A stretch of 64,000 nucleotides of DNA from Limisphaerales bacterium (GCA_965242585.1 OZ251460.1:1244869-1308868); one strand, 5' to 3'. Counted from the stretch's first letter, positions 13,397 through 60,100 are shown. Notes: generated from the letters alone by a model not told the origin. Translations and numbers: made by a program.

Positions 13397-13482
13397 TGCC
13401 GAGCAGTATTATGTTTTTTGAACAGAAATAAAGAAATTTTTTGCAGAGATCTGAGCGGGGCGAAGGATGGCTGCTAGCAAAT

Positions 13483-14652: not shown

Positions 14653-14931
14653 TGCCTCTGAATTTTGAAACTTTGTCCAACCGCGTCGGAGCAGTCTCTG
14701 CTCAGCGGAGAATGAAGATAAAGCGAGCGTTGTTCCAGTGTCACGTTGCTTTCTCGCCGGCGCCGACAAATTTCTGTGTATCGCTTCCCTTTTTTAACAT
14801 GCCCAGAAAAGTAAAAGCCGGAGGCGGGAAATCCAAGCGGGGAAACTCTGAGAATTCAAAGTGGCTTTTTGTAAATTCTCCCCTTACACTCCTTCCCGCC
14901 ACAAGCAAATCGCAAAAGAAACCAAACAGCA

Positions 14932-15849
14932 ATGGCGTTGACAAACGCAGTAACCTTGAGCGGCGTTTCCAAGTCCTACGGAAAACACCGGGCGGTAGAA
15001 AATCTGGATTTGCGGGTACCCGAAAGGAGCGTTTACGGATTCATCGGGCCGAATGGTTCGGGCAAAACCACGATCCTTCGAATGATCTTGCGCATTATCC
15101 ATCCGGACGAAGGGGCAATCGAAGTGATGGGGCGAACAAGCACGCGGGCGGCAAACGACCAAATCGGATATCTCCCCGAAGAGCGGGGACTTTACAAAAA
15201 AATGACCGTCCAGCGGCTGTTGCTCTATTATGCAAAGCTCAAACAAACCCCAAAAGCAGAGGCGAAACAACAGATAGACCGCTGGTTGCAACGAATGGAA
15301 CTGCTGGACTGGAGAAGCAAAAAGATCGAAACGCTGTCCAAGGGCATGGCGCAAAAGGTTCAATTCATCGCCACGGTAATTTCCCGCCCCAAACTCGTTA
15401 TCTTGGACGAACCGTTTTCCGGCTTAGATCCCGTCAACTTGAATGTGATTCGAGAATCGATTGTGTCGCTGCGAAAAGAAGGGACAACCGTCATTCTTTC
15501 CACCCACGACATGGAAATGGCCGAGCGAATGTGCGATTCGATTTTCATGATTTATCAGGGGAAAAAGGTGTTGAACGGCACCTTGCAATCCATTCAGCAA
15601 CGATACGGCGAAGATACCATTCGAATGTCCGTGGACGGCGACAAACGAAAAGTAGCGGCGTTGACGGGCGTCGAAGATTGGAGGGATTTTGGGCAATATC
15701 AGGAGATTCGGTTTTCCGGAGACGCGCAAACGCTCTTGCAACAGTTAGCAAATACGGTGCGTCTCAAATCCTTCGCGGTAACGAAACCGTCGCTGCACGA
15801 CATTTTTGTTCGAATTGCCTCGCCCCAGAAACCGGCCGCCAATGAATAA
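14932..15849 (+). CDS. ABC transporter ATP-binding protein (ABC-2/NatA-like)
   Basis: It has Walker A GPNGSGKTT, the signature LSKGMAQK and Walker B LVILDEP. Its stop overlaps the start of the permease gene. Confidence 0.9.
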   Translation: MALTNAVTLSGVSKSYGKHRAVENLDLRVPERSVYGFIGPNGSGKTTILRMILRIIHPDEGAIEVMGRTSTRAANDQIGYLPEERGLYKKMTVQRLLLYYAKLKQTPKAEAKQQIDRWLQRMELLDWRSKKIETLSKGMAQKVQFIATVISRPKLVILDEPFSGLDPVNLNVIRESIVSLRKEGTTVILSTHDMEMAERMCDSIFMIYQGKKVLNGTLQSIQQRYGEDTIRMSVDGDKRKVAALTGVEDWRDFGQYQEIRFSGDAQTLLQQLANTVRLKSFAVTKPSLHDIFVRIASPQKPAANE

Positions 15850-17161
15850 AATCATCACAATTGCGTCCACCGAATACGTCAACGCGCTTCGAAGCAAAGC
15901 GTTTCTCATCGGTCTTTTGGCGATGCCGCTTATGGTAGGGTTGATGATCATCGTGCCGCAACTCACCAAAGACAAAGTAGACCTTTCTGACCGAAAGTTC
16001 GCGATAGTCGACTTCAGCGGACGGCTTGGCGCAGTTATCGTTCAGCAAGCCGAAGAGCGCAACAAAACCGGCGTCTTTTCCAACGGAGATGACGAAAGAA
16101 CAAAGCGCCGACAAGCGCAACCCCGGTTCCTCCCCGAACTGATTGCGCTGGGAAACGCCACTTGGGAAGACCACGTCCTGCAATTGTCGAATCGCGTTCG
16201 CGACAAAGAAATATTTGCCTTTGTCTTGATTAGCGGAACAGTGTCGGATTGGGGCGACGAAGGACGCATTGCCTATCACACCCAAACGCCGACTTTCCAA
16301 GCGTTGCCCTCGTGGTTGGAGCGAATCATCAATCAAGAAGTGCGGCGAATTCGATTTGAGCGGGAAGGATTGGATTCGCAGCTGATCCAAGAAATCACCC
16401 GGCAAGTCAACGTTGAGCGGCTTGGATTGGCTTCGCAAAGCGAATCAGGAGAAATCCAAGCGGCGAAAAAAGAAAACCAAATCGCCACCTTTGCCATTCC
16501 CGCTGTTTCCATGCTCTTGCTTTTCATGATGGTAATGTCCAGCACGCCGGCCCTGCTAAACAGCGTTTTGGAAGAGAAAATGCAGAAAATCATCGAAGTG
16601 TTGCTTTCATCCGTCACGCCGTTTCAATTGATGATGGGAAAACTGCTGGCAACGGTGTCGGTGGCCGCAACTCTTTCGGCTCTCTATCTGGTTGCCTTGA
16701 CTTGGGTTGCTGGGAATCGCGGCTTTTTGGAGTTGATTCCGCTTCCTTTGTTCTTTTGGTTCTTCTTCTTTTTAATTCTCGCCATTTTGATTTTTGGCTC
16801 CATATTTCTCGCCATCGGATCCACTTGCAACGAAATTCAGGATGCGCAAAGTTTGATGGTTCCCGCCATGCTTTTGGTGATGATTCCGGTGATGACCTGG
16901 TTGCCGATTCTTCAATCACCGACGGGGACCTTCGCTCGTTGGATGTCTCTCTTCCCTCCGGCTACGCCAATGTTGATGATGCTTCGAATGGCGATCCCGC
17001 CGGGGTTGCCTTGGTGGGAAATTCTCCTCGGAGTCGGCGTAGCGATTGGTTTTACACTTTTGACGGTGGCAAGCGCCGCCAAAATCTTCCGCATCGGCGT
17101 CCTTTCACAAGGACAAACGCCCTCCTTTGGCCGAATGCTCCAATGGTTGCTGTCCAAATAA
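15842..17161 (+). CDS. ABC-2 family transporter permease
   Basis: It has one N-terminal TM, a large loop, then about 5 C-terminal TM helices. The start ATG 15842 overlaps the ATPase stop (ATGAATAA), which suggests coupling. Confidence 0.8.
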   Translation: MNKIITIASTEYVNALRSKAFLIGLLAMPLMVGLMIIVPQLTKDKVDLSDRKFAIVDFSGRLGAVIVQQAEERNKTGVFSNGDDERTKRRQAQPRFLPELIALGNATWEDHVLQLSNRVRDKEIFAFVLISGTVSDWGDEGRIAYHTQTPTFQALPSWLERIINQEVRRIRFEREGLDSQLIQEITRQVNVERLGLASQSESGEIQAAKKENQIATFAIPAVSMLLLFMMVMSSTPALLNSVLEEKMQKIIEVLLSSVTPFQLMMGKLLATVSVAATLSALYLVALTWVAGNRGFLELIPLPLFFWFFFFLILAILIFGSIFLAIGSTCNEIQDAQSLMVPAMLLVMIPVMTWLPILQSPTGTFARWMSLFPPATPMLMMLRMAIPPGLPWWEILLGVGVAIGFTLLTVASAAKIFRIGVLSQGQTPSFGRMLQWLLSK

Positions 17162-41628: not shown

Positions 41629-41719
41629 ACGCGGTATCTCTTTTGCGCTCCCGCTTTGCCACCCGGCGCGACGGAAAAATCCTTCCCTTCCTTTACTTCA
41701 AATCCCGCCCGCCCGCAAA

Positions 41720-41828
41720 CCTAAACTTGAATCTTGCAACGACGGCCGGCAATCGGCATAAATAAATCCTTTATATGGCAGAAACATTCCGAGCCTTGTT
41801 GCCGCAAATCGATGCGCTAAGCGCCAAC
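41720..41828 (+). repeat. Left copy of a ~108-bp diverged direct repeat (copy of the 5' end of the COG4889-like gene)
   Basis: Hand alignment to 43785-43891 gives about 86% identity (13 mismatches and a 2-bp indel). Long identical runs include AAACTTGAATCTTGCAAC, CAATCGGCATAA, AAACATTCCGAG and CAAATCGATGCGCTAAGCGCCAAC. Confidence 0.85.
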
Positions 41829-41912
41829 ACTTGGCAATCTGGCAAATGCCTCTTCAATCTAATTCTCCGCCGCGCCAATTTATCGGTCCAAACATGGAAA
41901 ATAATCCGCTAA
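41775..41912 (+). pseudogene. 45-codon remnant mimicking the N-terminus of the COG4889-like protein
   Basis: It starts MAETFRALLPQIDALSAN, versus MAKTFRELLQQIDALSAN at 43838. It then diverges to unrelated sequence and stops. Confidence 0.6.
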
Positions 41913-42053
41913 TAAATGCGAGAAAGATGGCGGAAAAGATTAATGCGGGGTTTCGGGGGATTGTGGGATGTTTTTCGTCTGAAAGCGCAAAACCCGCCGA
42001 AATCGCCTTGAAATGTGCAATTTCAGCATAGTTATTTTGTTCGCAAATATAGT

Positions 42054-42989
42054 ATGGCGTCAAACGGGAAGACCGAAATGACAATCTGCGAATCCATCGC
42101 AAACCGCAAAGCGGCGTGGCAATCCGACGACGGCGCGTCCGCGCTTTACCGCGACGACGCTTTCGCGCTTATGAAGGACATCCCAACCGACAGCGTCGAC
42201 TGCGTCTGGACCGACCCGCCTTATCTGCTTTCCAACGACGGCGTCACCTGCGTGGCGGGCAAGCGCGTCAGCGTCAACAAGGGCGACTGGGACAGAAGCG
42301 GCGGCGTTGAAAACGACCACGAATTCAACCTGTCTTGGCTAAGCGAATGCCACCGCATCTTAAAGCCCGCGGGAACGATATGGGTAACCGGAACGCTGCA
42401 CATATACCTCAGCGTAGGCATGGCGATGATGCAGCTGGGCTATCGCATTCTGAACGACATCATTTGGGAAAAGACTAATCCTCCCCCCAACCTTGGCTGC
42501 CGTTGCTTCGCGCACTCCACCGAAACCCTGCTGTGGGCGACCAAAGCTCCCAAGGGCAGCAAGCGCAAATACACCTTCCACTACAAGGAAATGAAAGCCG
42601 AAAACGGCGGCAAGCAGATGAAGACCGTTTGGCGCTTCCCCGCCGCCGGTCGCCAAGAAAAGCGATTTGGCAAGCACCCCACGCAAAAACCCGTCGCGCT
42701 TATAGACCGATGCCTGCGGGCCAGCACCAACCCGGGCGATTTGGTGGTGGATCCTTTTGCCGGCTCCGCTACTACCGGCGTGACAGCGATAAGGCTGGGT
42801 CGCCGTTTTATCGGCAGTGAACAGGTGAAGGAGTATGCCGAGTTGGGGGCTAGGCGGTTGGAAGAAGTGGGATGTGGCGTAACTAACGCTATTTCCATCC
42901 CGGAAACCGCCGATTTCAAGATGCAACAGCAGTTACTGGAGTCGTCGGCTCAATACCAACCATCAGCCAATAGGGAGGTGCCTGGATGA
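42054..42989 (+). CDS. Beta-class N6-adenine DNA methyltransferase, DpnA/M.HinfI-like
   Basis: Blocks recalled from DpnA are TDPPYLLSNDG, VSVNKGDWD, HEFN, LKPAGTIWVTG, NPPPNLGCRCFAHSTETLLWATK, GKQMKTVW, GKHPTQKP, VVDPFAGSATTGV and RLGRRFIG. I chose the start at ATG 42054; the track opens at GTG 42015. Confidence 0.85.
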   Translation: MASNGKTEMTICESIANRKAAWQSDDGASALYRDDAFALMKDIPTDSVDCVWTDPPYLLSNDGVTCVAGKRVSVNKGDWDRSGGVENDHEFNLSWLSECHRILKPAGTIWVTGTLHIYLSVGMAMMQLGYRILNDIIWEKTNPPPNLGCRCFAHSTETLLWATKAPKGSKRKYTFHYKEMKAENGGKQMKTVWRFPAAGRQEKRFGKHPTQKPVALIDRCLRASTNPGDLVVDPFAGSATTGVTAIRLGRRFIGSEQVKEYAELGARRLEEVGCGVTNAISIPETADFKMQQQLLESSAQYQPSANREVPG

Positions 42990-43783
42990 CGCTTATTCCT
43001 ACTGACGAATCCGGGAACAGCCCCAGTTGGCGGACTATTTTCGAGCGTTACGAAATCGCTGACCACGACTTCGACACTGCGCCCTTTCCCATATCAGCAG
43101 ATCAAATCAAGCGGGCTTGCCAGCACTTTACAAAAACCGGTGAAAAGGAAGTACGGATACTGTGCAAGCAGGACACGCGAGAGTCCCGCCCCCAAGTCTT
43201 TCGGGATCGAGGGCTTTTCATCCTGCCCGTTAAGAATGGAGAGTATGTCATCGTCAAAGGCGAGGGCTACATCGACGTACCAGACATTACTTTCCCTTTG
43301 CAGGATTACCAGAGTGCCTTTCCGTTCAAGTTGGAAACTTCGGGAGTAGGCAATTCGGAAATGCAGTACTTGGATCGGGCTTATGCGCTGAGCCTAGTTC
43401 GACATTTTGTCGGGGATGATTCTCTCGTGCTTACGATTCGCGGGAGGAAATACACTCCTCAGTTTGACTTCTTGGTTAATGGGTTCCCCATCCGTGCACA
43501 AAGTGTGCAGACCGAAGTTGACGGCGGCTACGAAGGCAAATCCCAAGTTGTCTTGGTCGAAGCCAAAGGATCGAATGCGGACAACACCATCATCCGCCAG
43601 CTCTACTACCCGTTTCGCCAATGGCAGAACCACACGGCAAAGCCCGTGTCAACGCTCTTCTTTCAGCGAACAAGCGATGACGAATACCGCATATGGCAGT
43701 TCGTCTTCGACGACCCCGCCGATTACGGCAGCATCCGCCTGCTGAAATCCGCCCGCTACAAAATTGCAACGGCGTATCGCTGA
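42986..43783 (+). CDS. Putative type II restriction endonuclease (cognate of the 42054-42989 methyltransferase)
   Basis: 265-aa ORF whose ATG overlaps the methyltransferase stop (ATGA). A candidate PD-(D/E)xK core is EVDGGYEG...VVLVEAKG. I recognise no family, so the call rests on context. Confidence 0.55.
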   Translation: MTLIPTDESGNSPSWRTIFERYEIADHDFDTAPFPISADQIKRACQHFTKTGEKEVRILCKQDTRESRPQVFRDRGLFILPVKNGEYVIVKGEGYIDVPDITFPLQDYQSAFPFKLETSGVGNSEMQYLDRAYALSLVRHFVGDDSLVLTIRGRKYTPQFDFLVNGFPIRAQSVQTEVDGGYEGKSQVVLVEAKGSNADNTIIRQLYYPFRQWQNHTAKPVSTLFFQRTSDDEYRIWQFVFDDPADYGSIRLLKSARYKIATAYR

Positions 43784-43784
43784 A

Positions 43785-43891
43785 CCCAAACTTGAATCTT
43801 GCAACAACAGCAGACAATCGGCATAAGCAAATCCTTTATGGCAAAAACATTCCGAGAACTGTTGCAACAAATCGATGCGCTAAGCGCCAAC
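43785..43891 (+). repeat. Right copy of the ~108-bp diverged direct repeat
   Basis: See the 41720-41828 entry. It covers 53 bp upstream plus the first 18 codons of the COG4889-like gene. Confidence 0.85.
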
Positions 43892-46800
43892 CCCGCCGAA
43901 AAAGGACGACTGTTCGAGCAGTTGACCAAGGCTTTCCTAGAACAAGAAAAAGCCAACCGCGCCCGATTCAAACAAGTCTGGCTCTGGAACCAATGGCCAA
44001 ACCGCGGCCAACAAACAGACATCGGCATCGACCTTGTAGCCGAAACATACGACGGCCAACTCATCGCCATCCAATGCAAATTCATTTCTCCATCCACAGG
44101 CCGCATCGACCGAAACCCTCAAAAAGTGACCAACTTCACAACCGCTCTCAACAGCAGGCAATGGAACTTTGCCGAAGGCATCTTTGTCTCCACCTGCGAT
44201 CATTGGACGAAAGAAGCTGAAAACGCCCTAAATCACAGCAAAATTCACGTCTCCCGCTGGAGTTGCGAAATCTTTGAACAATCTTCCATTGACTGGCGAC
44301 ACTTCACGCTCTCGCCCCAGCCCAAACCTCCGCACGAATATCAAGAAACCTCTCTCCAATTAAAAGAAGAATTGGCAGCATATAAAACCTCTCCCCAACT
44401 CCCGCAACGCGCCGTCAAAACTCTGCGCGAATATCAAGAAACCGCCTTGGCCGCCGTCCTCGAAGGCTTTGAAACCGCCGACCGCGGCAAACTCATCATG
44501 GCCTGCGGCAGTGGCAAAACCTTAGTCGCCCTCCGCATCGCCGAAGCTTTGGCGCCCAACGGCACCATCCTGTTCCTCACGCCTTCCATTTCCCTGCTCG
44601 CCCAATCTCTGATGGACTGGGACGCCGACGCTCAATCCCCTTTGCGCATCTTTTCTGTTTGTTCCGATACCTCCGCAGACCAACGCAAAAGCCAAAACGA
44701 CCCTTTGCATACGCCGCTCCTCGAAATCAAAATCCCGCCCACAACCAATCCCCAAAAACTCGCCGCCGCATTCCACAAAAACCAAAACCACCAACCCAAC
44801 GCCAAAGGCTTGACCGTGATTTTCTGCACCTACCAAAGCCTCGAAGTCATCCACCAAGCCCAAACAACCAAACAAAACCCCTTGCCGTCATTAGACCTAA
44901 TTATCTGCGACGAAGCCCACCGCACCACCGGCCAATCCGATCCCAATGCGAACAAAAAAACCGAAACCAAAGGCTTCCAACGCGTCCACGACCCCGAATT
45001 CATTGGCGCCGGCAAACGCCTTTATATGACCGCCACGCCCCGCATTTACGGAGACCGCGCCCAGCGCAAAGCCGCCGCCAAACAAATCCTGCTCGCATCC
45101 ATGGACGACGAAAAACTCTTTGGCAAAAACTTTTACCAACTCGGCTTTGGCGAGGCCATTCAAAGAAACATCCTCTGCGATTACAAAGTAATCATCCAGC
45201 ACGTCGATGTAGAGCAAGCCCGCCATATTCTAGACGACAGTTATTTTGATGCCGAGCTCCGCAAGTCAAACAATGCTGACCAAGACAGCGAAATCATCAA
45301 ACTCCTCGACAACGGCGCCCGAATGATCGGTTGCTGGAACGCTTTGCGCAAACACGGCGAAGCCAACACCTTTGCCGAAAACGAAAAACCCGCCCGCCGA
45401 GCCGTCGCCTTCAGCAACCGCATCGCCCAATCCAAAAGCTTTGAAAAATATTTCCCCACCGTCATCCAGCATTGTCAAGAACACCAAGCAAACGACGCCG
45501 GCCAAGCTCTTGAATGCGAAACCAAACACGTCGACGGCACCCAACTTTCCCGCCACCGCGCCGATGCCCTTCAATGGCTTCGTGATAAACCCGCAGACGG
45601 CCAATGCAAAATCCTCACCAACGCCCGCTGTCTGACCGAAGGAATCGATGTCCCCGCATTAGACGCCGTTCTTTTTCTCCAACCCAGAGAATCCGAAATC
45701 GACGTCGTCCAAGCCGTTGGCCGAGTCATGCGCCAAGCCGAAGACGAAGACAAAAAGCGCGGCTACATCATCATTCCCATTGTCATCGCCAAAGGCAAAG
45801 ACGGAAGCGAAGCCCTCAACTCCAGCGTTTATCAAACCGTCTGGCAAGTTATCAACGCCATCAAAGCTCACGACGACCGCTTTGCCGCCGTCATCAACCA
45901 ACTTGCCATTGAGCAAAAAGACTACCTCCAACAAAAAGACATCGGACAAGAAAACCAGCAGACCTCAACCGACAACGACCAACACCTCCAAACCCACATC
46001 CAATTCGTCAATGCGCCCGCCGTCTTGAAAAAACTTCTCCTCGCCAAAATCGTCAACACCTACTCCGACCGAAATTACTGGAATCGCTGGATCTCCACCA
46101 CCCACGAAGTCGTTCAACAAGTCACCGACAAGCTAAACAATCCCAAACAACAACCCCAATCCAAGCCCATCTTGGACCGCTTTTTCAAAGCCCTTGAACA
46201 CAACGTCCAAGGCATGCCCGTCAAAGACGAGGACGCCATTGAAATGCTGGCTTTGCATTATGTGAGCAAGCCGGTTTTTGACCATTTGTTCCCTACCACC
46301 AGCCCGCTTTCCGATGCGCTCAATGCCGTAATCCATGACCTCAAACCATACGGCCTTGCCGAAGAACTGGAGAGCCTGCAACCCCTTTTCTGGCAAGCGC
46401 AACTCAGCGCCAAAGACGCCCCCAGCAACGCCGCCAAACAAAAAATCATCAACTACTTTTACGAATCCTTCTTCCGCCGAACGATGCCGCGCCAAGTGCA
46501 GAGTTTAGGCATTGCGTATTCTCCCATTGAAGCGGTGGACTACCTGCTGCACGCCGTGCAAGACCTGCTCCAAACTCACTGGCCGCCGCAACCCAACGGC
46601 CGCCCGACTACTCTGGGAAGTCCCGGCGTTCACATCATCGAGCCGTTTGCCGGCACGGGAACATTCCTCGCCCGCTTGATGGCCGACCACTCGCTCATCT
46701 CGGACGAAGAGTTGGACTTCAAATATCAACATGAAATCTTCGGCAACGAAATTCTGCTGCTGGCTTATCACGCCGCCAACGCCAACATTGCCGCCGCTTA

Positions 46801-46984
46801 CCAAGAACGCACTGGCAAAACCAAACCATTCAACAATCTCTGGTTCGGCGACACTTTTCGCGCTTATGAAACGATGCATCAAGCGCAACCGCCGCTGAAC
46901 CTGCCCGGCTTTGAAGACAATCACAAAATCTTGCAACATCAAAAGACCGCCAAAATCCGCGTCATCCTCGGCAACCCACCATGA
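43838..46984 (+). pseudogene. Type ISP-like (COG4889) Mrr-nuclease / SF2 helicase / gamma-N6A-methyltransferase gene, truncated inside motif IV
   Basis: Nuclease: DIGIDLVAE...IAIQCK. Helicase: ACGSGKT, LIICDEAHRTTG, MTATPR, QAVGRVMR. Methyltransferase motif I is IIEPFAGTGTF. The ORF ends ...VILGNPP-TGA, so motifs V-VIII and the target-recognition domain are missing. Confidence 0.8.
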
Positions 46985-47074
46985 TTTAAAAAAGTTCGAT
47001 TCTCGGTTGACAAATCCAAAGAAGCGGCGGAAATTGATTTCGGACGGTTCATTAGTTGGCAAGAAAGGAAAGTC

Positions 47075-48145
47075 ATGAGTGCAGAAGAAACGGCAATTGA
47101 GCGGGTCGAAAAGAAATTGGAAAAGATCGAAAAGAAGGTGGACAGCATCAACACCGCTCTTTACGGCATTGGCAACCCTCACGGAGGATTGTTCGGGGAA
47201 TTTAAGGCATTGGAAGTCAAAATTGACGGCGTTGAAAGCAAGTTAGAAGCCAAGATTGACGGCGTAGAGAGGATTTTTGACAAAATGTCTGGACTCTTCA
47301 AATGGTCTGTCGGCATAGCCTCAGTTCCGTTCTGTGCGATAGCCATTCCGATTTTCATTGAAATCGTCTTGCCGATAATTCGGAAATGGATGGGTTTTTC
47401 GGTTATTGCGATTGCGATAATTTGGACGGCCACCACCGCCCAAGCGCAACTTTACATCGACGTTTATCCATCCCAAGACAACCCCGACAGCGAAATCGTT
47501 TGGATTTTTAGCGGCTCTTCCACCGCTCATTACGGAAGCAGCATTCGAAGCAGCCAAAATTATCACGCGCGAGACTCTTGGAAACACGATGATGTAGGCG
47601 AATCTCTTTATTTAGCCAATAAGCCAACGAACCAGTTAGTTTCTCTTTCTCCACTGTTTTCCAACACCAACAATCCAACAGACATCGAGTCCATTCAAAA
47701 AAGAATTCCGGGAAGCGATAGAACGCAAGATTTTGACGCCATCGTTACCAACGCGCCGACCGTAACCATTGGAAGCACGAGCAGACCCATCGGCAAGATT
47801 TTTATGAACGACGCCGATGTTGACGAGATTGGCATTCGCATTACTCCTCCCAATCTGGTTTTTACCAACGGGCAAACATCTCGCTGGTTTGGCGCCGGAA
47901 TTTTGAACAAACCGCACAGCGATTTTGCTCCTAGTGAGTACCTAGAGAATCCGCTGGTAAGTTACACCACTCATGCTACAGCGATAGGTGCTCCTTATTT
48001 TGCTGAGAGACAGCGCAACGGTGTTCGATTACGAATACACCATTCGTTCATCCCTGAACCTGCGGGATATGCTTTGGTGTTTGGATTATTTGCGATTGGT
48101 TTCATATTTTTCCGACGATTGTTTCTAAAGAATTCATCAAATTAA
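47075..48145 (+). CDS. Composite ORF: XhlA-like coiled-coil/TM module joined in frame to a signal-peptide + PEP-CTERM protein
   Basis: The N-terminal 105 aa are a coiled coil with KIDGVE repeats plus one TM. An internal Met at 47390 starts MGFSVIAIAIIWTATTAQAQ, which looks like a signal peptide. The C-terminus IPEPAGYALVFGLFAIGFIFFRR is a PEP-CTERM sorting signal. Confidence 0.6.
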   Translation: MSAEETAIERVEKKLEKIEKKVDSINTALYGIGNPHGGLFGEFKALEVKIDGVESKLEAKIDGVERIFDKMSGLFKWSVGIASVPFCAIAIPIFIEIVLPIIRKWMGFSVIAIAIIWTATTAQAQLYIDVYPSQDNPDSEIVWIFSGSSTAHYGSSIRSSQNYHARDSWKHDDVGESLYLANKPTNQLVSLSPLFSNTNNPTDIESIQKRIPGSDRTQDFDAIVTNAPTVTIGSTSRPIGKIFMNDADVDEIGIRITPPNLVFTNGQTSRWFGAGILNKPHSDFAPSEYLENPLVSYTTHATAIGAPYFAERQRNGVRLRIHHSFIPEPAGYALVFGLFAIGFIFFRRLFLKNSSN

Positions 48146-48148
48146 GAA

Positions 48149-48364
48149 ATGCAAGACACTATTCCAAAGCATTATCGGCGGTATCCAGGATCTTTTTGGC
48201 GGGGGTTTATTAGCGTTCTGGGAGGCGCAAGCATCCTGCATGGATCGTTTGACCCTCCCCGATACCCTAGAGACGCCCAACGACAAGACCTAGAACGCAT
48301 CGGACAAGACATGTATCGAGCATTCGAACAATACGATAATGAAACACGAACAAAACAAACCTAA
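48149..48364 (+). CDS. Hypothetical 71-aa protein
   Basis: The ORF starts 1 codon after the stop of the previous ORF, and its end overlaps the next ORF. I recognise no family. Confidence 0.35.
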   Translation: MQDTIPKHYRRYPGSFWRGFISVLGGASILHGSFDPPRYPRDAQRQDLERIGQDMYRAFEQYDNETRTKQT

Positions 48365-48830
48365 CGATCCGAATGAGGAAAATAAGGAATCGGAAGAGGA
48401 ATCCGAGTCTCCAGACCAAAAATTGCCGGCCAAAACTGATTCGGACAAACCAGATGTCTTGAAAGAACAAACAAGTGGTGTTCATCTTTCAAGTCTCTCT
48501 GCATCCATTCAACAATCACCTTTGCCGCCTGCGGACATGTTTCGTGATTACGAGATGACTCTACCCGGAAGCGGCGACCGCATTCTTGGTATGGCCGAGA
48601 AAGAGCAAAATCATCGCATCAACTGGGACAACGAATCTTTGAAAAGATCTGATAGTGAAACAAAACGAGGGCAATGGTTTGGCTTCATTATCGCGATATT
48701 TTGCATCATCGTTACAGCTTTCCTTGCTTACAACGAGCAGCGTTTAGTGCCGTCCATATTGGTAGGCACAGGCACATGCGCTATCGTCTGGCAATTCATT
48801 CAAAAGAAAAGGAAACATGATGGTTTTTGA
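48339..48830 (+). CDS. DUF2335-like membrane protein
   Basis: It has an acidic N-terminus, then PPADMFRDYEMTLPGSGDRILGMAEKEQNHRINWDNE followed by two TM helices. I recall this pattern from the DUF2335 family. Confidence 0.6.
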   Translation: MKHEQNKPNDPNEENKESEEESESPDQKLPAKTDSDKPDVLKEQTSGVHLSSLSASIQQSPLPPADMFRDYEMTLPGSGDRILGMAEKEQNHRINWDNESLKRSDSETKRGQWFGFIIAIFCIIVTAFLAYNEQRLVPSILVGTGTCAIVWQFIQKKRKHDGF

Positions 48831-49297
48831 AAAAGCGAAAAGAAGCCGCCCGCATTGAATTGCCGCGCAGTTTGCCAGAGTTTCAACGAGTCTCTGAGAT
48901 GGGAAAACAACTGGCCGAACTGCATCTCAACTATGAAAAGATGGAGCCGTTGGAATTGGAGATTGATCGAGCCGCTGATTTTGACGAAAACAACCCGGCG
49001 CATTTTGAAGTGGAAAAAATGAAATACGGCGGGAAGCGGCCAAACTTGGATAAAACCGTGATTCATTTCAATCGGTGGTTGACTTTTCGGGGCATTCCTC
49101 TGGAGTGCCATAACTATCGGCTGGGCGCGCGGAGTGCGTTGGACTGGCTAGTCAACCGCTACTGCGTCAAAACCGACCGCCGCTCTCAAATCACCAAGAA
49201 TCCCAATGCGTGGAATGCCGGCCGCTACCTCTTTGATTTGATTCCGAGAATCGCCCGCCTTTCATTGCAGACGCCATGTCTGACGCAGAAAAGATAG
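48827..49297 (+). pseudogene. Detached C-terminal fragment of the Type ISP-like (COG4889) protein
   Basis: It has no ATG and opens at TTG. It carries LAELHLNYE, FEVEKMKY, GIPLECHNYRLGARSALDWLVNRYCVKTDRRSQITKNPNAW, which I recognise as the conserved extreme C-terminus of COG4889/Type ISP-like enzymes. It is in the same reading phase as 43838. Confidence 0.7.
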
Positions 49298-49507: not shown

Positions 49508-49678
49508 CTACTGAAACGCTTTCCATGCCTCGTCTTCCTCGGGTTTGTTCCAGTCTTCGGCCAAACTTTTTTCGCTCAGCAAAGCGCGCTGTTTTACGAA
49601 CAAGTAGAAATCATAAACTTCCCGCTGGGCGTCTTCGGGCAAATCCCGCAAATCAATTGGTTTTATTTGGTGTGGCAT
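49508..49678 (-). CDS. Antitoxin-like mini-protein (DUF2281-like), 56 aa
   Basis: Hand-translated as MPHQIKPIDLRDLPEDAQREVYDFYLFVKQRALLSEKSLAEDWNKPEEDEAWKAFQ. The 'LP.EAQ.EV.DF..FL' and 'LAEDW..PEEDEAW' strings resemble type II antitoxins. It is below the track size cutoff. Confidence 0.5.
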   Translation of the reverse strand: MPHQIKPIDLRDLPEDAQREVYDFYLFVKQRALLSEKSLAEDWNKPEEDEAWKAFQ

Positions 49679-51108: not shown

Positions 51109-54100
51109 TTATTGCGGGTTAGTGAAAGGGGATTGGATGGCAACGCCGTCGGCATTTTCCACAATTCGGGCGTTGAAAAACCAAGAGTCTCGGAGGTTGT
51201 CCACTCGGACGGTCAAAATGTTTTTACCGGCTTTTAATGAAGCTTGGGCGCGGTTTGGGGAAGTCGGTTGATCCACGGGGAAGAGGTGGATTGCTTGGCC
51301 GTTGAGCCAAACCATTCCGGGATCGTCGCTTTCAAAAGCCAAAGTGACGGAGCACACATCCGGGCTAACCAGAGCGGTGCGGGCATAGGCAGATTTTCCT
51401 ATGGATTGGTTTCCTTTGCGGCTGAGGATGGAGTCGAAGGTTTCGCCTTCTTCAAGCCCTATGATGTGAGTATCGATTGGATTGTACCCTTTAAACTTGA
51501 TGAAGTCGAAGTAGGAGTCGAGAGATTGGTCTATGCCGTGTCCAAGGAGGAAGTTGTGATAGGAAGTGAGAGCTTTAGATTTGTTCCGTTCGAGTTCTTG
51601 TTGTTGGAGTATAAGTAGGGAAGATCCGAGGGATTCGGAGTTTTCGAGGAGTTCTTTGAGTGGTTGATGTCGCCGTCCTGTACGCCGCCCACCGACGATT
51701 ATAGAGCGGAAGTTGTCGAAGTTTACAAGCTGTTTGAGGTTGAAGAGTTTGTCGAGGTAAATAAAGCCGAAGGTGTCTTTGGGGTGGATGTGTTTTGTCC
51801 AAGCGGCAGGATCAGTTGGCGGTTTTGAAGAGATGTGAAGGCTGTAGGGGCCGGCGATTTGCCACGATTGGATCATAGTAGACAGTCGCTCTGCTTCTTT
51901 CCGCTGTTCCGGGCGAAGGGCGAAGGGTTTTGGCGTTGGTTGGGTTCCTAGTTTTTCGTGGATTTCGCGATAGATGCCGACGAGCATGGGAATTGAAGAA
52001 AGCTCGGATTGCTTGGCAATGTGGGTCTCAAGGGCGGATTGAAATGCGGGCAGGTTTTGTTGATCCACGGAGATATAGAGGGTTTGCAAAAAGTCGTGGC
52101 CTTTTTGCTGATGTTCTGAGGGGAGTTTGACAAAGTTGGAGAGTGCGCCGTCAAAGTCGCCGGCCGTTAGTTGGACTTCGGGCAGTTTTTGCAAGGCGTA
52201 TTGTTTGTGGTTTTCTTCGTAGTCACCGTCGGCCAGTTGATTGAGAAAGGCGAGAGCGGCTTTGTGTTGTTGGGTGGTTTGGCAAATGGCGACGAGGTGT
52301 TTTAGCGGTTCGGCGCTGAGATCGGGATTTTTGGCAAGTTTGGCGAGTTCTTGCGCGGCGATGTTGGATTTTCCTTGAAAATGCGCGGCGAGGAATCGGT
52401 AGTAGGCTTGCCGGGGTTTGCTGGAAATTGGGTCGTTGATTGCCTCAATCAGTTGGGCGGCGGTTTCTTCGGAGGCGATTTTGAACAGGGCTTCGAGACG
52501 ATGCGGTTCGGCGAGCAAGATGGCTCTGTTTTCCTGAAAATGTTTCAGCACTTCTGCGTCGGTTTGGGGTGTTGTTGGTTTGGATTCGATCTCGAATTCA
52601 CTGGGAACCGGCGGCAGAGAACCTGAACGGTGGAAACTGGATCGGATTCGCTCAAGAATTTCTGTGGGGACTCCGGGCGGAAAGTGAAAAGTTGGGAAGT
52701 CGTCGATGATTTCTCCTGGCGGGACGGGCACTAAGGGAACGTTTCTGCCGAAGGGATGCTTGCGGGCTTGGTCGATCAAGGGATGCGGCTCTGCTTGGTC
52801 GAGGAGTTCTTTAAGCTCGCTGTGCATTTGAACTAGGTCGGAAAAGTCTTCTTGCACCTCGCTACGGTTGCGTTCGTTGCTTTTGTCCCAGTGGTTTTGG
52901 TAAAGGGCGAGGGTTTTTTGCGGTTTATCCAAGTGGATGTAGCACTCGGCCAAGTCTTGGATATGATCGTAGGAAAGCGGGGCGATTTTGCGGGAGGCTT
53001 CTAGCCAAGCGGCTGCGGTTTCGTAAAGTTCGTTGGACAACAACCATTCAGAGAGGTCTTGGAGTTGGTAGCTGTCGCGTTGTATGTTGCGGGCTTTTTC
53101 GAAGGTTTTGAGGGCGTTTTCCTTTTGGTTTTGGAGGGCGTAGCACTTGCCCATGTTGACAAAGAGTTCTTCTCTTAAGCGCTTGTCTTTTCGATATTTT
53201 TTAAGGCTGTTTTCGTAGTGGGCGAGCGCTTTTTCGTATTGTTCTTCATAGAAGAAGAGGTTGCCGATTTTGATTTCGACGTCGCCGTCGCCTCTCCAGT
53301 CCAGAAGTTTGTCGATAGCGGCTTGGGCTCGTTTTGGCGCTTGATGTTTCAGGTAGAAGCCGATGACTTTCACTTGGTTGTCGGCTTCTTGGTAAAGTGT
53401 TGAAGATGGCGGAAGTTTCTCAATAAGTTGAAAGGCTTCGTCCGTTTGTCCGTTTTCTGCCAACCAACGGACTCGATTTAGAATGTAATCTTGGTTAAAA
53501 GGGTTTTGTCGCATTAGTTGTTGGTAGAGTTCGCCGGCGGGTTCTTTTAGTTTCGCATTGGCGTAAGTTCTAGCGAGCAATCTGAGGATTTCTTGATTGG
53601 GAGGATCTTCGGCTTCGGCGCGTTTTCGAAAGCCGTCGAGGAGGCGTTTTTGTTTTGCCTTCACTTCGGAGGGGGCTTCGTTTCGGAAATTGCGTCTTAT
53701 ATTGTGAAAGTTGCGTCCTACATTTCGGAAGTTTCGTTCTATATCGCGGAAGAAAGAGCTGCGTCTGTGATTTTCCGTATAGCGGAAGTGGTTCCATGCA
53801 ATGTCGATGAGGGTGTCGAAGTCGTCCGAATCCGTAAAAAGCGCAAAGACTGCGTTCATATCGTAAGGGTTGAGGTAGCCACGGTCTTTGTGTTTGAGAA
53901 ACAGCTTACGGGCTTCTTCAAGGTAGTCGTTGCTGCGAAGAAAGTTGAAGTATTGTTTGAAAGTTGGGGCGTCGGCGCGTTGTTCAAATTGTTTGGCATA
54001 CGTTTCTTTGGCCGCTTTGGGGTTGCCTCGTTTGGCGTCAAACTGGGCCAGTCGGAGTTCGGCGGCCGGCTTCCGGGAGGCATCGGCAAGTTCTATCGCT

Positions 54101-57100
54101 TTGAGAAGTGAAACGCGGGCGTCGGCGTGTTTTCCGGCGCGTTCTTGATAATCGGCGAGGAATCTGTATCGGCCTTCCGTTTCCTTTTGGGACGCCCAAG
54201 AAGAGAGCATGGCAAGTGCCTGCGACTGTTTCCCCGCGTTGAACATAGCGCCGGCGTAGAGTTGCCGGTACATTTGGTTGTCCGGTTCGTTTTCTATAAG
54301 TTGGCGGGCTAGTTCCACGGCCTTTTCCGGCTGATTGTTTCTGATCAAGGCGTCGGCATAGACTTTCCGATGCGATAGGTTGTTCGGTTCGTTTTCTATA
54401 AGTTGGCGGGCTAGTTCCACGGCCTTTTCCGGGTTGTCGTTTCTGAAGTGGATTTGAATTAGTTCGGAAACCAGTTTTGTTGTATTGCTCGAACCTCGAG
54501 CGAGGACGCGGGACAAAAAGGCTTCTCGGCGGTTTTCGGATTGATCGAAATAGTCCCAGCGATAATGGTTGGCAATGGCGAGGAATAACTCTATGTCGGC
54601 GTCCGTATAGGTTTCTTTATCAATGGCTTCGTTAACTATATTTTGCAGTTGGTTGTATTGCACGTAAGTTTCGGCAACAATTCGATTAAATTCCTGCTGT
54701 TCATAAGACGGCGGTCCGGCACTACGCCGTCGCTGTCTCTTACTATTTGGGGAATGCTTGCGAACTAAGGCTTCCACCTCGTCCCATAGACCGTACTCTC
54801 CGAAGGTATTGACTGCCTGGCGCATAAAATGCCAAACAGGACCCCCGTGTCCGGTCTGCTCTTCAATCCAGTCTTTGTAGAGTTTTTTGCCGCGGTCAAG
54901 ATCGCCTTTAGCCATGTAGATTTTTGCCAAGCGCCCTTTGTCGTAATAGTTCTGTTGGAGCATCGGATCCTGGATGTCTTCAAGGACGTCGTCGATTCGC
55001 CCGGTGACTTCCGCAATGTCAAGCAGGTCATTAAAGGCGTTGGGATTCTGCCCGGTGTTGACGGCTTTCGTCAAATGTTCAATAGCGTCGTCAAAGCGTT
55101 TTTCGAAGATGGCAATTTGAGCAGTGAGAGAGCCGGATAGAGGATCGTTGGCGTTCTTTTCTATCAACTCCCGGTTGATTTCCTTAAGTTCGTCCAAGCG
55201 TCCCGTAGAGGCGTACACTCCGGTTAGGTGTTGGAGAGTGTAGCTGTCGATACCGCTTTGCGCGTGAAGGAGAGGGGAGGAAGTGAGCCAGTTTTTGTAC
55301 AAGGCAACGGCGTCTTCGTGTTTGCCAAGTTTGAGATACACATCGGCCAGCTGGCGGTGCATCCAAGTGTGTCCGGGAGATAGTTGAATCGCTTTTTTGT
55401 AAAGCTCGGCCGCTTTTTCCAGCTCGCCGCTTTGTTGGAATCGGTTGGCCAGTTGCTGGAGTTGATTGGGGTCTCTCATTCGTTTGGCGAGATTTTCCTC
55501 GATCTTGAGAATTTGTCTTCCTTGGCCGCTTCGTTGGTAAAGGTTTCGCAACTCCCAGCTAATTTGCTGGTAAACGTTGGGATGGGTTTTGAGCAGTTGT
55601 TCGTAAATAGAAGTGGCCTTGTTGAAGTTGCCGGTGTCGGAATAAAAACGGGCGAGCTGTTGTTTGGCTTGTACAAGATGAGGACGCCTTTGGATGAGGG
55701 TTTTATAGACTTCGATGGCTTTGTCGTTCTGATTGTTTAAGGCATATAAGGCGGCTAGGTTTTCGTGCAAGCGGACGGAACCGGGCTGTTTGGCGAGTCG
55801 TTCGGCAAATTCCTGAATCAACTCTTCGCTACGACCGGCTTGAACGTAATAGTGATGCAGGTTTTGAAGAAGGCCTCCGACGGAGCGAAGGATAGTAGAA
55901 GAAGCGATGCCGCGAGGGTAGCTGCGGTAACGGTAGCTCTGGCTCGAACCGCCATAGGAGGAACGATCCCAAGCTTCTCGGGCCAAAGCGATGGCGCGCT
56001 TGTAGTTTTCTTCGTTGGCATAGATGTTGGCAAGGAGGGCCAGCGCCTCCCCGTTGCGGCTGATTCCCGACAAGTGTTCTTCCAAAAGTTCTTTGGCCCG
56101 TTTGTTTTCTCCAGCATTGGACAAGGGGCGAATCGCCTCGACAAGTTCTGCAGGTGAAAAACGCCGCTGGATCATTTGCCGGATATAAGAGGATGCTTCT
56201 TCGTAGCGTTCGCAACGAATGGAAACACTTGCTTTGGCCGAAAGGATTTTGCGGGATTGGGAGGAAAACCGTCGTTCTGCTTGATCGTAAAGTTGCATCA
56301 TGGCATCGCAGTCGTCCCGGGATTCGGCAATGTGGAGAGCGAGGTTGAACCACTCTACACGATCACCAGCGGCGTCCTTCAGTTCGTTTAGCCATCGCTG
56401 CGCTTCGTCAAGTTCAGAATCCGCAAGATAAGAAGTGATGAGTAGTTTGGCGGACAACCACGCCTTGTCTTTGGCGTCACGGCTTTTGGCGTTGCGCAAT
56501 TGCTTTGCTTGGTTAATCAAGGGTTGCAGGGGGAGGTCGCCATCTTCAGACAAGATTTGAAGCTGGCGCATCGCCTCGGCCTTTTGGTAGTCAACAGAGC
56601 CGATCAACGTCGGCGGGAGGTTTCTAAAAACACTTCCACCATAGTAGCGGGGAGAAGAGGGATGGCGCGGTGGGGGAACGTAAAGTTCCACTCTTGGGCG
56701 TCGAAGAGGAAAGCTGCTGGAAGGTGTCGCAGAATCAGCGGCGAGCATCTCGGCATACAAATTCTTGGCTTTTTCTTTATCTCCTTTCTGGGTGTAGAGA
56801 CGGGCCAGGCTGGCGATGGAAAAAGAAGCGGAGTTGCCTTGGGTTTTCTTTTGAGCTTTTTCGTAGAGTGCAATGGCTTCTTCTAGTTGGCCGCGTTGTT
56901 GCATAAGGCCGGCGAGTGTGAAGAGCGGTTGGACGTCGTTTGGATTTTCTTCCAGCATTTGATTCGTCAAGGCGATGGCTTTTTCGCTTTCTTGATTCTG
57001 AAAGTAAAGTGGGATGAGCGTTTGCCTTGCTTGATTCTGGTATTGGGGCTGAGTTTCCGCCAGTTTTTCCAAAAGAGAAGCGGCTTTGTCGAGTTGGCGT

Positions 57101-60100
57101 CGGCTGGCGTAGTAGGATGCGGTCTGTTGTATAAGCGCGGCGTCGTTCGGCGCCAGTTGTAGGATTTCTTCCGCCATTTTGAGGGCGTCGTCGATGCGTC
57201 TGCAAGATTCATAGACGAGCATAAGATCGCGTTTGGCTTGGGTGTTTTTAGGTTGGTCGTTGGCTTTTTTTACAAACTGTTCGATAAGAACGTCTTCACT
57301 GTTGCTGTTTTGGGATAAGGAGGCCATGAAGCGGATCACTTGCGGTCGGATTTCCTGAAAAGTTCCTTGCGGGAAAGCGCCATAGTATCGTCGGCTGTAG
57401 GAGATGGGAACATGGTAAGAGATGTGTTGAACGCCGGAGGGAAACGAGAATGGACCGTAGGGAGGCATATAAGGGGGAAAGTATTGACGGAGCGTTTGAG
57501 TGCTTTGTCGCCGCTGGCGAATGGTTTTCTTTTTTGTTTCTTCGGGGAGTGTCTGTTGTTGTCGGTCGCCCAGTTTCAGCAGTTTTTGCAGTTGTTCCAC
57601 AGCCTCGATGGAACGTTCGTTTTCAGCCAGCATTTGGGCGTATTCCCAGCGGCGTTGATAGTTGGATTCGTCTAGTTCCACGGCTTGCCGTTTGTATTCA
57701 AGGGCTTCGTTGGGGAGGTTTTCTCGCTGAAAAATGTCGGCGAGGCGGTCGTAAGCCTTTGGATCTTGAGAGGCGGTCGCCTTTTCGCCGGCAACGCTCG
57801 GTGAATAGTCTTCTACCATTTGTTTCCAGGTTTCGCGGGCTTTGGCGAGATCTCCGATTTGAGCGTAGATGTTGCCTAATTTTTCGTATTCGTAGGCGGA
57901 TGGTTTTCCTCTATGGGCAATCAGTTGTTCGTAGTATCCGATGACTTTGGGAAAGTCGTGGGCTTCGTAGGCGGCGCGAACTAGGGCTTGCAAGGCGGGA
58001 GCTTTGTCGTCCACGTTTTGAAGTCCTTCCTCTAATACGGCCAATGATTTTGTAGGAAGGCCGGTTTCTTGATAAATGTGCGCAAGTTCTCTGTAGGCGG
58101 AGAGCTTTTTTGGGGTATTGCGGCGGCGGCGGGTAAAGTCGGCGATAAGTTCGTCTGTCGTGTTTTGCAGTTGGTGAATTTGGGCGAGCTGAGCAACGGC
58201 ATTTAGGCGGGAGCCGTCATCGGCGGTGGTGTCCAACATTTTTTGGAAGGCGATCTGAGCCTCGCCCCATCGTTTTTGTTGCTTGAGGGCTTCGCCGTGT
58301 TGGCGGTGGTAGTCTGGTTCGTTCGGTTTCAACCGGAGAGCGTAGCGGTATTGTTGGAGTCCTTTTTCGGGACGTTGGTAAAGAGTATAGACTTGGGCGA
58401 GATTGATTCGAGATTCGGCGTCTGCCGGGGCCAGTTCGACGATTTTTTCGGCAGTAGCGAGGGCTTCGTCTCGGAGATCCAGGGCAAGGTAGATGTCTAG
58501 GAGTTCTTGATGGTATGCGCGGGCGCGCGTTTTGTCATCGGCGGCGAGCTGGAGGAGTTCTTCAATCGCTTTGTTGGTAAGGCGGTTTGCGCGGTAAGCG
58601 CGGATCAAGTCTCGGCGGAAGTCGGCGTTGTCTGGTTGGAGTTGGGTTCGTTTTTCCAAGAGCGACAGGGCGGATTCTCGTTGGCCGGCGTGTTGGTAGA
58701 GTTTGGCTAGGCGGCTGAGGACAGAGATGGAGTCGGGGTTTTCGAGCAGTTCTTTTTCCCATTCCGCCTGCTTTTCTGGGAGAATTCCGAGTTGGGACCA
58801 AGCGTCTAGTCGGCCGCTTTCGCCGCGGTTTTGAAAATAGGCATTCTCGGTTTGGTTGGCGAGGTCGCCGAAGATATTGGCGGCTTCTTCGAATTTTTCC
58901 TGACGCATGAGATTGCGGGCAAGTTGCAGGGCGAAGTCGAGATTTTCAGGGGATTTTTTGATTGCAGTTTTCCAGAGTTTCTCGGCTTCTTCGGTTTGCT
59001 GGTGGGCGTCGAGGATGGAGGCAACTTCGGCATATTCGGAGCCCGAAGCGGTGTTGATTAGTGTGGATTCCCAAGCGGCGACGGCTTGGTCGTTTTCTCC
59101 TTTGGCGAAGAGCAATTGAGCTAGGCGAAAAGACCATTCTTTGTTGGGTGTCGTGTTTTTTGCGCCGCCGAATTTTTGCGAAGTAGCGAGGGCTTGGCGG
59201 TAGCAACGGATGGCGTCTTCGGGGAATTCGTAAAGTTCGTACCAGGCGGCTAGTTCGGCCCATTGCCCGGCGGCGGGTGTTGGATGGTTGTTGGTTTTTT
59301 GTGTGGAGATTAGCCGTTCCCAGGTTTGTTTGGCGAGTTCGACGTTGCCGTTTTGCCAATGCGCTTCTCCCAGGCGGCGGAGATAATCGGAGTCGTTTGG
59401 AAACAGCTGGATCAATTTTTCGAAGGTGTTCCCCAATTTTTCCGGTTGTTGGAGGCGTTGGTAAAGGGCGATGAGTTTTTCGAAAGTGGGCGCGTGGCGG
59501 GGGTTGCGTTCGAGAATGACGCGGTATTCGCTTTCCGCTTTGTCGAGACGGTTCATGCGCAGGTGCGTTTCTGCCAAAAGGTCGCGGAATTCGAGGTCGG
59601 CGGGGTTTTGCCGCAATCGAGCCAAGATGTATTTGACCAATCCGGCAAGGTCTCCCATGTCTTCGTAAACTTGGACGAGGCGCAGTTTGACGTCTTCAAA
59701 CAGCCAGTTGCCGGGGGAGACGAGTTCCAAAGCGGCTTCGTAAGAGGCAATGGCTTCGGGAAACCGTTCTGCTTGGAGCTGGCAGTTGCCGATGGAGCGT
59801 AGCGCCCGGCAACGTCGGTAAGGCTCCCGTTCAGAAAGCGCGGCGATGCGTTGGTAGATTTGAATGGCTTCGTCCCAAAGGCGGTTTTCTTCGTAAATGG
59901 CGCCGAGTTCGATTTGAGCGAAGAGGTCGTCCGGCGATTGCGCGGCAATTTGTTTCCAAACCTCGACGGCCCGTTCGGTGTTTCCTTCCCGTAGGAAGAG
60001 GTTGCCCAAGATGCGGGAGACTTGGCTTCGTTCTTCCAAGTCGGACAAGTCCACAAGCGCTTGGGTGAGCAGTGGAATGCCTTTTTGATTTTCGCCTTGC

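Follow-up and report, generated by a model that had tools for sequence, protein, structure and literature searches.

How should a restriction gene be read when its open reading frame (ORF) ends inside the catalytic motif of its own methyltransferase, while a matching tail lies 1.85 kb further downstream? The question is posed by positions 43838-49297 of a 64-kb stretch of DNA from a Limisphaerales bacterium (Verrucomicrobiota; the whole stretch is called the window in the following), which hold two pieces of a Type ISP gene related to LlaGI and LlaBIII. A first-pass annotation had left the choice between a recent replacement inside this gene and a retained nuclease-helicase; this choice is too simple, since the replacement is old and its left junction is shared by several other loci (L001/L002, L044 and L049; L-numbers denote comparison loci, P-numbers homologous proteins). 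Judging from sequence comparison, we hold it probable, with considerable room for doubt, that the region is an inactivated Type ISP gene with the history set out below, and that its product is likely inert and not a working enzyme.

A Type ISP gene in two fragments

The N-terminal fragment (43838-46984, plus strand) starts with ATG and encodes 1048 aa, comprising an Mrr nuclease, an SF2 helicase, a coupler and the N-terminal half of a methyltransferase, and it ends with ...KIRVILGNPP at a TGA (46982-46984). An alternative TTG start at 43799, 39 nt upstream of the ATG at 43838, is less likely, because relatives begin with MAKTFR.... Pfam assigns Mrr_cat_2 to aa 40-158 (E 8e-29), ResIII/DEAD to aa 195-402, Helicase_C to aa 519-632 and ISP_coupler, the coupler of a Type ISP enzyme, to aa 747-861 (E 4e-15). 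In a phmmer comparison with the PDB, the fragment aligns with residues 13-1020 of 1578 of LlaBIII (4xqk, E 3e-173), and LlaGI is matched as well; of the PADLOC profile REase_MTase_IIG, positions 2-1034 of 1646 are covered. The nuclease motif DIGIDLVAE...IAIQCK aligns with DTGVDLVAE...VAIQAK of LlaBIII, and the helicase motifs GSGKT, DEAH, TATPR and QAVGRVMR are likewise aligned with this enzyme. No internal stop or frameshift interrupts the 1048 codons, the nuclease and helicase motifs are conserved, and the protein is 73-83% identical (aa) to P0002-P0005.

What is not encoded is a complete gamma-class N6-adenine methyltransferase (motifs X and I-VIII), as the ORF stops at GNPP followed by TGA. 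Its last part, termed the A arm (46440-46981, plus strand), is the N-terminal half of the methyltransferase (P0004 aa ~876-1038), and alignments with L001, L044 and L049 place the TGA (plus strand) at the W position of motif IV (NPPW). The gene is indeed cut inside motif IV, as the first-pass annotation had stated, with the LlaBIII and PADLOC alignments stopping there; homologs do not naturally end at NPP, for intact relatives of 1621-1631 aa continue with GNPPWS(V/M)G... at the truncation point. Past the TGA, the frame is open directly into the next ORF (47075-48145), and relatives, which have TGG (NPPW), read through. Recoding or read-through of the TGA was rejected as unsupported, given the TGG of the relatives and the own ATG of the ORF at 47075, which is preceded by AAAGGAAAG. 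A 30-codon leader is stop-free by chance in about 1 in 4 random sequences.

The C-terminal fragment (48835-49297, plus strand), identified by Pfam, PDB, PADLOC and blastn comparison, corresponds to P0004 aa ~1460-1614 and lies in an ORF at 48827-49297, which has no ATG at its head and whose frame is open from 48821. Its matches to Pfam Type_ISP_C (positions 215-339 of 342, E 2e-29), to LlaBIII (residues 1443-1565) and to the PADLOC profile (positions 1475-1629 of 1646) bear out the claim that it is a Type ISP C-terminus. The Type_ISP_C target-recognition domain (TRD) is not part of the nuclease-helicase polypeptide; its remnant is this separate ORF 1.85 kb downstream. By blastn, 1851 bp of the window (46984-48834) take the place of 1266 bp of the intact locus L005 (10323-11588), which amounts to 422 aa and falls within the predicted loss of 300-450 aa. 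The absent stretch (P0004 aa ~1039-1459) comprises the methyltransferase after motif IV, i.e., motifs V-VIII, and most of the TRD (about two thirds). An excisable intervening element of the skin/nifD type was rejected: the DNA was replaced with loss of 1266 bp, and a recombinase gene is lacking. The two fragments share a frame (frame 2), as had been observed, but this common codon phase is coincidental: the fragments of L001 are in different frames, and the C fragment of L049 is frameshifted.

The region thus shares with LlaGI and LlaBIII the order of Mrr nuclease, SF2 helicase-like ATPase, coupler and gamma-class N6-adenine methyltransferase, and its C fragment corresponds to the final part of the Type ISP specificity domain. 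It differs from them in lacking about 420 aa, in place of which three ORFs are found, and is a remnant, not a single complete polypeptide. In Type ISP enzymes, ATP hydrolysis and translocation start only after the TRD/methyltransferase part has recognised an unmodified site (PMC4666363). With no TRD and an incomplete methyltransferase, the 1048-aa product would therefore be able neither to recognise a site nor to methylate it, and since translocation and cleavage need site recognition, it would be inert and not self-toxic. An inert product is hence most likely, and the potential self-toxicity that had been suggested is not expected, because the module that triggers activity is absent (PMC4666363).

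Shared junctions and a stand-alone paralog

Intact alleles occupy the same chromosomal site in relatives (L005 and L007). The window has the gene order AI-2E transporter (minus strand), ISP region, sulfatase (minus strand) and giant TPR protein (minus strand), and the same order is found at L005, L007, L008, L043, L044 and L001. L005 (AI-2E transporter, ISP 5' stub, Type II methyltransferase, Type II endonuclease, intact ISP gene for P0004 of 1621 aa, sulfatase) has the layout of the window, the break excepted; L007 reads AI-2E transporter, ISP gene, sulfatase. In the window, the inserted DNA is more AT-rich, as had been noted by eye (GC content 0.44-0.48 versus 0.50-0.57 in the ISP coding parts), and contains the three ORFs reported earlier: 47075-48145, encoding a protein with a PEP-CTERM-like tail (the PEP gene), 48149-48364 (orf71) and 48339-48830 (DUF2335).

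The left junction, NPPWS|SKKIRFSFDKS, is present in four other independent contigs, namely L001/L002 (two samples), L044 and L049. It is defined by a shared leader of the insert, which in the window reads FKKVRFSVDKSKEAAEIDF (46985-47042, plus strand) and is homologous to SKKIRFSFDKSIEAAE(S/I)DF in L001 and L044 and to SKKIRFSFDKSIESAEIDF in L049; P0005, from L001/L002, reads ...GNPPWSSKKIRFSFDKSIEAAESDF... and continues into a homolog of the ORF at 47075. At this junction, only CCG>CCA, TGG>TGA, one C>T and one 3-bp deletion separate the DNA of the window from that of the relatives; therefore, the TGA is a later, window-specific change. The right junction falls into two groups: ISP sequence resumes at about aa 1394-1412 in L001 and L044, which have a gene for a membrane protein of ~150 aa after the PEP gene, but not before about aa 1456-1460 in the window and L049, which have orf71 and DUF2335 instead. 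The right junction of L049 is that of the window minus 23 nt.

These recurrences bear on the question of whether the break could be an assembly artefact or a sequencing error at a junction or at the TGA. The window comes from a single 4.5-Mb contig, and the difference between TGG and TGA rests on one base. However, four independent contigs from other samples have the left junction, and L049 has the right one as well; since both are reproduced in independent assemblies, mis-assembly is very unlikely. Even without the TGA, the gene runs into inserted DNA, and we give an artefact next to no credence.

The short strings CATGAT...AAAAAG, to which the first-pass annotation had drawn attention, do exist at both junctions (three occurrences in the window versus 0.2 expected, for a pattern picked post hoc), but they do not stem from a single event. 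On the left, the string derives from CCGTGGTCTTCAAAAAAG, still found in L001 and L044, through point changes and the loss of 3 bp in the window; on the right, it belongs natively to the orf71-DUF2335 module as its 3' end, with homologous sequence at the unrelated locus L048. As the two copies differ in origin, a target-site duplication was rejected. The module itself (48092-48830, plus strand), which includes the final 54 bp of a PEP-CTERM gene, is 87% identical at the DNA level to L048 (blastn), and its presence at this unrelated locus suggests that it entered the window in a second, later replacement.

Signs of decay after the fusion are the TGA in the window, the frameshifted C fragment in L049 and the frameshifted PEP-CTERM tails in L001, L044 and L049. 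The locus is often broken in other ways as well: L003 and the first copy in L008 are frameshifted, and the first copy in L043 has an internal deletion. In the latter (L043 9399-12703, P0006), an in-frame deletion joins ...GFQQNAKIL to DKTMLRYNRF... (P0004 aa ~1047 to ~1531), which is another route to TRD loss in a genome whose N part is otherwise identical to that of L008. Outside the clade, the Type ISP homolog of Helicobacter marmotae (L038 12890-13647) is recovered by tblastn in several pieces, with a gap of ~750 bp in the N-terminal half of the methyltransferase, and may be another disrupted Type ISP gene. The break in the window is thus neither private nor recent; it is most probably an inherited, recombining relic and not a newly repurposed enzyme.

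A candidate source of the downstream tail is a stand-alone methyltransferase-TRD paralog (M2) found behind the ISP gene in some relatives. In L008, M2 is an intact ORF of 775 aa (14820-17147), whose ATG overlaps the ISP stop and which consists of its own leader (MSAVEEVDALF...), methyltransferase, TRD and C-terminus (Pfam Eco57I and Type_ISP_C). Compared with the co-resident ISP gene, its A arm is 96.8% and its C-terminal (C) arm 99.1% identical, as opposed to 72% for the TRD; near-identical arms around a diverged TRD are the signature of gene conversion in the arms. The same paralog occurs in L043, a close relative of L008, at 12700-14940 behind the TRD-deleted P0006. In L044, beyond a full-length ISP gene, the corresponding leader (MNVVEKVDALF...) is followed by an A arm, the NPPWS|SKKIRF junction and the PEP gene; the arms of this disrupted paralog are 92.6% (A) and 90.5% (C) identical to that ISP gene. 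The cassette of L044 is thus a separate downstream paralog that is intact in L008, and the tail in the window, which had been assigned to the same gene as the N fragment, is probably that of an M2 paralog. Among 36 Type ISP loci from diverse genomes, one has such a second copy, and this arrangement was found in Limisphaerales only. No recombinase gene was seen beside the ISP or M2 copies in the loci examined.

Mosaic divergence and a proposed history

Different parts of the gene have diverged to very different degrees. The N-terminal parts are ~88-92% identical among all ISP alleles, and the methyltransferase-TRD part is deeply diverged even among intact ones, with a synonymous divergence (dS) of 0.65-1.2 in the A arm versus about 0.2 in the N part. 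Two allele classes exist in the coupler region, and the window falls in with L003 and L049. Window positions 45040-46440 (ISP aa ~400-875) are 90-98% identical to L003 and L049, compared with only 60-70% identity to the syntenic alleles over aa ~676-850. L003 sits at a different chromosomal locus (sulfatase/YceI...PdxA); the identity of 45040-46440 across loci therefore indicates that coupler allele classes move between loci or genomes. In sliding comparisons, identity to L003 and L049 falls sharply at 46440, where the homology of M2 (in L008, L043 and L044) to the ISP gene starts.

Between the window and L049, the pair that shares both junctions, dS and the ratio of nonsynonymous to synonymous divergence (dN/dS) are 0.20 and 0.26 for the coupler region (N3), 0.21 and 0.09 for orf71, 0.26 and 0.79 for DUF2335, and 0.33 and 0.11 for the flanking sulfatase. 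For the PEP gene, they are 0.87 and 0.46, and for the A and C arms 1.03 and 0.16, and 1.11 and 0.17, respectively. A dS of ~1 together with a dN/dS of ~0.2 in the arms argues against neutral drift since a single ancient disruption; the arms look like copies of live alleles. Such divergence is what would be expected if the resident ISP gene had converted the arms of a dead cassette time and again, following the pattern of L044 and L008.

These values weigh on the simplest reading from the window alone, namely one direct replacement inside the ISP gene with vertical inheritance since, which makes the N and C fragments opposite ends of a single original gene. One shared left junction does exist, and A arm, insert and C arm are similarly diverged between the window and L001 (72-74% nucleotide identity). 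However, arms that have long been dead should approach a dN/dS of 1, whereas 0.16-0.24 is observed at a dS of ~1, and the arms of the window and L049 have 3-5 times more synonymous divergence than N3, orf71 and the sulfatase. Moreover, the cassette of L044 has the paralog's own leader and lies behind a full-length ISP gene, and the arms of disrupted copies form no separate clade in the identity matrix: the A arm of L044 goes with L007 and the first copy of L044 (92%). We consider a single replacement decidedly unlikely.

The inactivated-gene reading has to be weighed against several observations. In the N fragment, the ratio of lineage-specific nonsynonymous to synonymous changes (N/S) is 18/25 = 0.72 compared with 0.56 in intact relatives, i.e., there is no detectable relaxation (p 0.57, Fisher), and the value lies far below the neutral expectation of 2.4-3.4 (p 2e-5); the low dN/dS of N3 (0.26) points the same way. 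At family-conserved positions, the fragments of the window score about as well as the intact P0003, although this is weakly informative: the 60 reference homologs of the invariant-column test form a clade apart from the Limisphaerales, and P0003 fails equally many columns. As for the proposed history, the assembly of L044 breaks its full-length ISP gene into three frames, and this gene may therefore not be live. No contig was found with the orf71-DUF2335 cassette behind a live ISP gene, so that the fusion step is drawn from L044, where the insert is of the other kind. Transfer could also have run the opposite way, with insertion into the ISP gene first and conversion into M2 afterwards.

The selection data raise the possibility that a protein of nuclease, helicase, coupler and half a methyltransferase is kept by selection without a TRD, e.g., as a non-specific translocase/nuclease or as the partner of another protein. 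It would agree with the 1048 open codons and intact motifs, and with the N/S and N3 values just given; the truncated architecture occurs in three lineages (window, L001/L002 and L049), and the TGA cuts the protein exactly where ISP-derived sequence ends. However, a low N/S is equally compatible with continued selection and with recent independent fusions of a live N part, and a low dN/dS could also result from pervasive recombination, for which the 90-98% identity of aa 400-875 to L003 is an example. The end of the protein is not conserved, since the ORF of L001 and L049 runs into the frameshifted PEP gene, and sister alleles at the locus are visibly decaying. Known Type ISP activity needs the TRD/methyltransferase part (PMC4666363), and no methyltransferase-TRD partner was found within the 64-kb window. 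On balance, a retained enzyme appears unlikely, though by no means negligible.

For the inactivated gene, the following history is proposed, of which the first two steps rest on observed arrangements and the remaining three we infer. An ISP gene and a translationally coupled M2 would have stood in tandem, their A and C arms being homogenised by gene conversion. A PEP-CTERM-like gene and a small membrane-protein gene would then have taken the place of the M2 sequence between NPPWS and the distal TRD. In the line that includes the window and L049, the orf71-DUF2335 module may in turn have displaced the right half of this insert, presumably through homology in the PEP gene at one end and GC(G/A)AAAG microhomology in the C arm at the other. 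The A arms, being direct repeats, might subsequently have recombined, with loss of the TRD and 3' end that belonged to the ISP gene itself and of the leader of M2; this would fuse an intact nuclease-helicase-coupler part to a dead M2. Finally, TGG at the fusion point would have changed to TGA in the window, accompanied by decay in the other fused alleles.

Surrounding genes and known systems

The first inserted ORF (47075-48145, plus strand) encodes 356 aa and belongs to a large clade-specific paralog family. It has a coiled-coil/XhlA-like part with a transmembrane segment, a signal-peptide-like segment, a domain of ~220 aa and the PEP-CTERM-like tail IPEPAGYALVFGLFAIGFIFFRR, which can be recognised by eye and matches positions 2-23 of 24 of Pfam PEP-CTERM with E 0.85 and 10.3 bits, below the cut-off of 20.7. 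NCBIfam gave neither a PEP-CTERM match nor a name for the insert ORFs or the stand-alone paralog. Within this locus, the XhlA-like and transmembrane part (47075-47389) is confined to the window and missing from L001, L044 and L049; this N-terminal extension also occurs in the family members P0122, P0123, P0125, P0127 and P0139, the first four of which share the architecture (356-381 aa). Of the 160 homologs, at least 13 lie on the window's own 4.5-Mb contig, and the PEP gene can therefore be converted by paralogs; its dN/dS relative to the copies in L001, L044 and L049 is 0.34-0.46. The family (P0121-P0240) is clade-restricted, with ~250-380 aa and a PEP-CTERM-like tail. The two long-form members examined adjoin defence-type genes, namely AAA_15/DUF4276 and PLD-helicase genes in L045 and a 540-aa N6_N4 methyltransferase in L047. 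Two 33-nt tandem units (47210-47275, 76% identity) encode the heptad-like motif KIDGVESKLEA/KIDGVERIFD of the XhlA-like coiled coil, and paralogs hold 2-4 such units.

The second ORF, orf71 (48149-48364, plus strand), encodes a 71-aa protein with no family assignment, which is 96-99% identical in L049 and L048 (aa; dN/dS 0.07-0.09). The third (48339-48830, plus strand) encodes a DUF2335 membrane protein of 163 aa from a phage 'moron'-type family, as indicated by Pfam (E 5e-15, 55.6 bits versus a cut-off of 25), phrog_3996 (E 8e-32) and distant phage matches; its evolution is near-neutral (dN/dS 0.6-0.8), unlike that of orf71. As a pair, orf71 and DUF2335 are retained in L048 and L049 and at 5 of 6 distant metagenome loci. 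The two genes overlap, and they are found in unrelated contexts (window 48149-48830, L048 5141-5798, L049 1932-2568 and L050-L055), next to a 533-aa N6_N4 methyltransferase and a TnsA-like gene in L048. A degenerate 48-nt pattern of the insert leader had 0 matches in JGI metagenome contigs, a collection from which these organisms seem to be absent.

Upstream of the ISP region lies a Type II restriction-modification pair: an N6/N4 DNA methyltransferase (42015-42989, plus strand; Pfam N6_N4_Mtase E 5e-53, PADLOC MTase_II E 5e-84), which is a neighbour and not part of the ISP gene, and a candidate endonuclease with DUF6996/DUF6997 (42986-43783, plus strand; Pfam, and PADLOC REase_II E 3e-31), whose start at 42986 overlaps the methyltransferase stop. 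If the ISP product is inert, defence at the locus would rest on this adjacent pair. Further upstream, direct repeats (D1/D2) reveal a relic copy of the 57-bp ISP upstream region and first 18 codons (MAETFRALLPQIDALSAN; 41718-41828, plus strand), 88-89% identical to 43783-43891. The pair is thereby bracketed by two ISP 5' ends, as it is in L005 (4946-5049 versus 7129-7239); in L001, it instead follows the ISP C fragment, whose stop overlaps the start of the methyltransferase. The bracketed and shifted positions suggest tandem duplication or permutation of a unit of ISP gene, methyltransferase and endonuclease. A 20-nt repeat (41983-42002 versus 43882-43901, 90% identity) overlaps the final 10 nt of the stub repeat; it begins 154 bp past the stub end, and 41829-41982 may be a small insertion into the relic stub. 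In a promoter/terminator consensus scan of 41.6-49.75 kb, sites were no more frequent than in shuffled sequences, which has no bearing on separate expression of the fragments.

The ISP tail and the sulfatase are separated by a 56-aa ORF (49508-49678, minus strand), which is kept in L049 (77% aa identity) and has a very weak match to VapB antitoxins (E 0.044); at the equivalent position, L008 and L043 have a PemK-like toxin gene. Directly beyond the sulfatase, a TPR-rich ORF of 3141 aa (51109-60534, minus strand) is conserved across the syntenic loci.

LlaGI and LlaBIII are >95% identical in their N-terminal domains and have different TRDs (PMC3553950). The alleles described here resemble this pair in having conserved N parts and deeply diverged methyltransferase-TRD modules. 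To the Type IIL/IIG enzymes MmeI and DrdV (PDB 7lo5) they are related by a homologous methyltransferase-TRD part: the fragments of the window match 7lo5 residues 256-450 and 870-1018, and the 775-aa paralog of L008 resembles such a module without nuclease. Unlike in MmeI, no N-terminal PD-ExK nuclease of that type is found here, and the module is either attached to a helicase or, as the paralog, stands alone.

Type I hsdS loci can carry extra partial or silent specificity copies that share conserved arms. By analogy, an expressed module in L008 is accompanied by a second copy with near-identical arms and a divergent TRD (97-99% versus 72%), and recombination between the arms might likewise change or destroy the expressed gene. 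In contrast to hsdS, the copies are direct and not inverted repeats, the second copy is complete as an ORF, having a start of its own, and the outcome documented here is destructive only. Homology-facilitated illegitimate recombination combines a one-sided homology anchor with microhomology. The 54-bp tail of a PEP-CTERM gene could have been the left anchor of such an event, with GC(G/A)AAAG joining the ISP C arm on the right; the difference is that the mechanism proposed here is inferred from sequence only.

The correct annotation of the region would be a two-fragment Type ISP pseudogene with three inserted genes, and not a nuclease-helicase of unknown role. As a functional element it is ordinary; its moderate interest lies in how a defence gene is repeatedly taken apart by recombination, a process in which M2 with its homogenised arms would serve as the recombination substrate, and a multi-copy surface-protein family and a small mobile gene pair as the replacing DNA. 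The broken allele circulates among related genomes beside intact alleles. A wider reading, which is close to the idea of a TRD-less nuclease-helicase kept by selection and which we regard as quite unlikely, is that Type ISP is a two-gene unit in this clade, in which a coupled M2, its arms held identical through gene conversion, would act as a direct-repeat TRD cassette that passes specificity modules to the expressed single-chain enzyme. The allele of the window would then represent a recurrent failure mode of this unit, a cassette with captured foreign genes having recombined into the expressed copy. If the paralog is a specificity-exchange device, cassette-type specificity variation would be extended from Type I hsdS to Type ISP.

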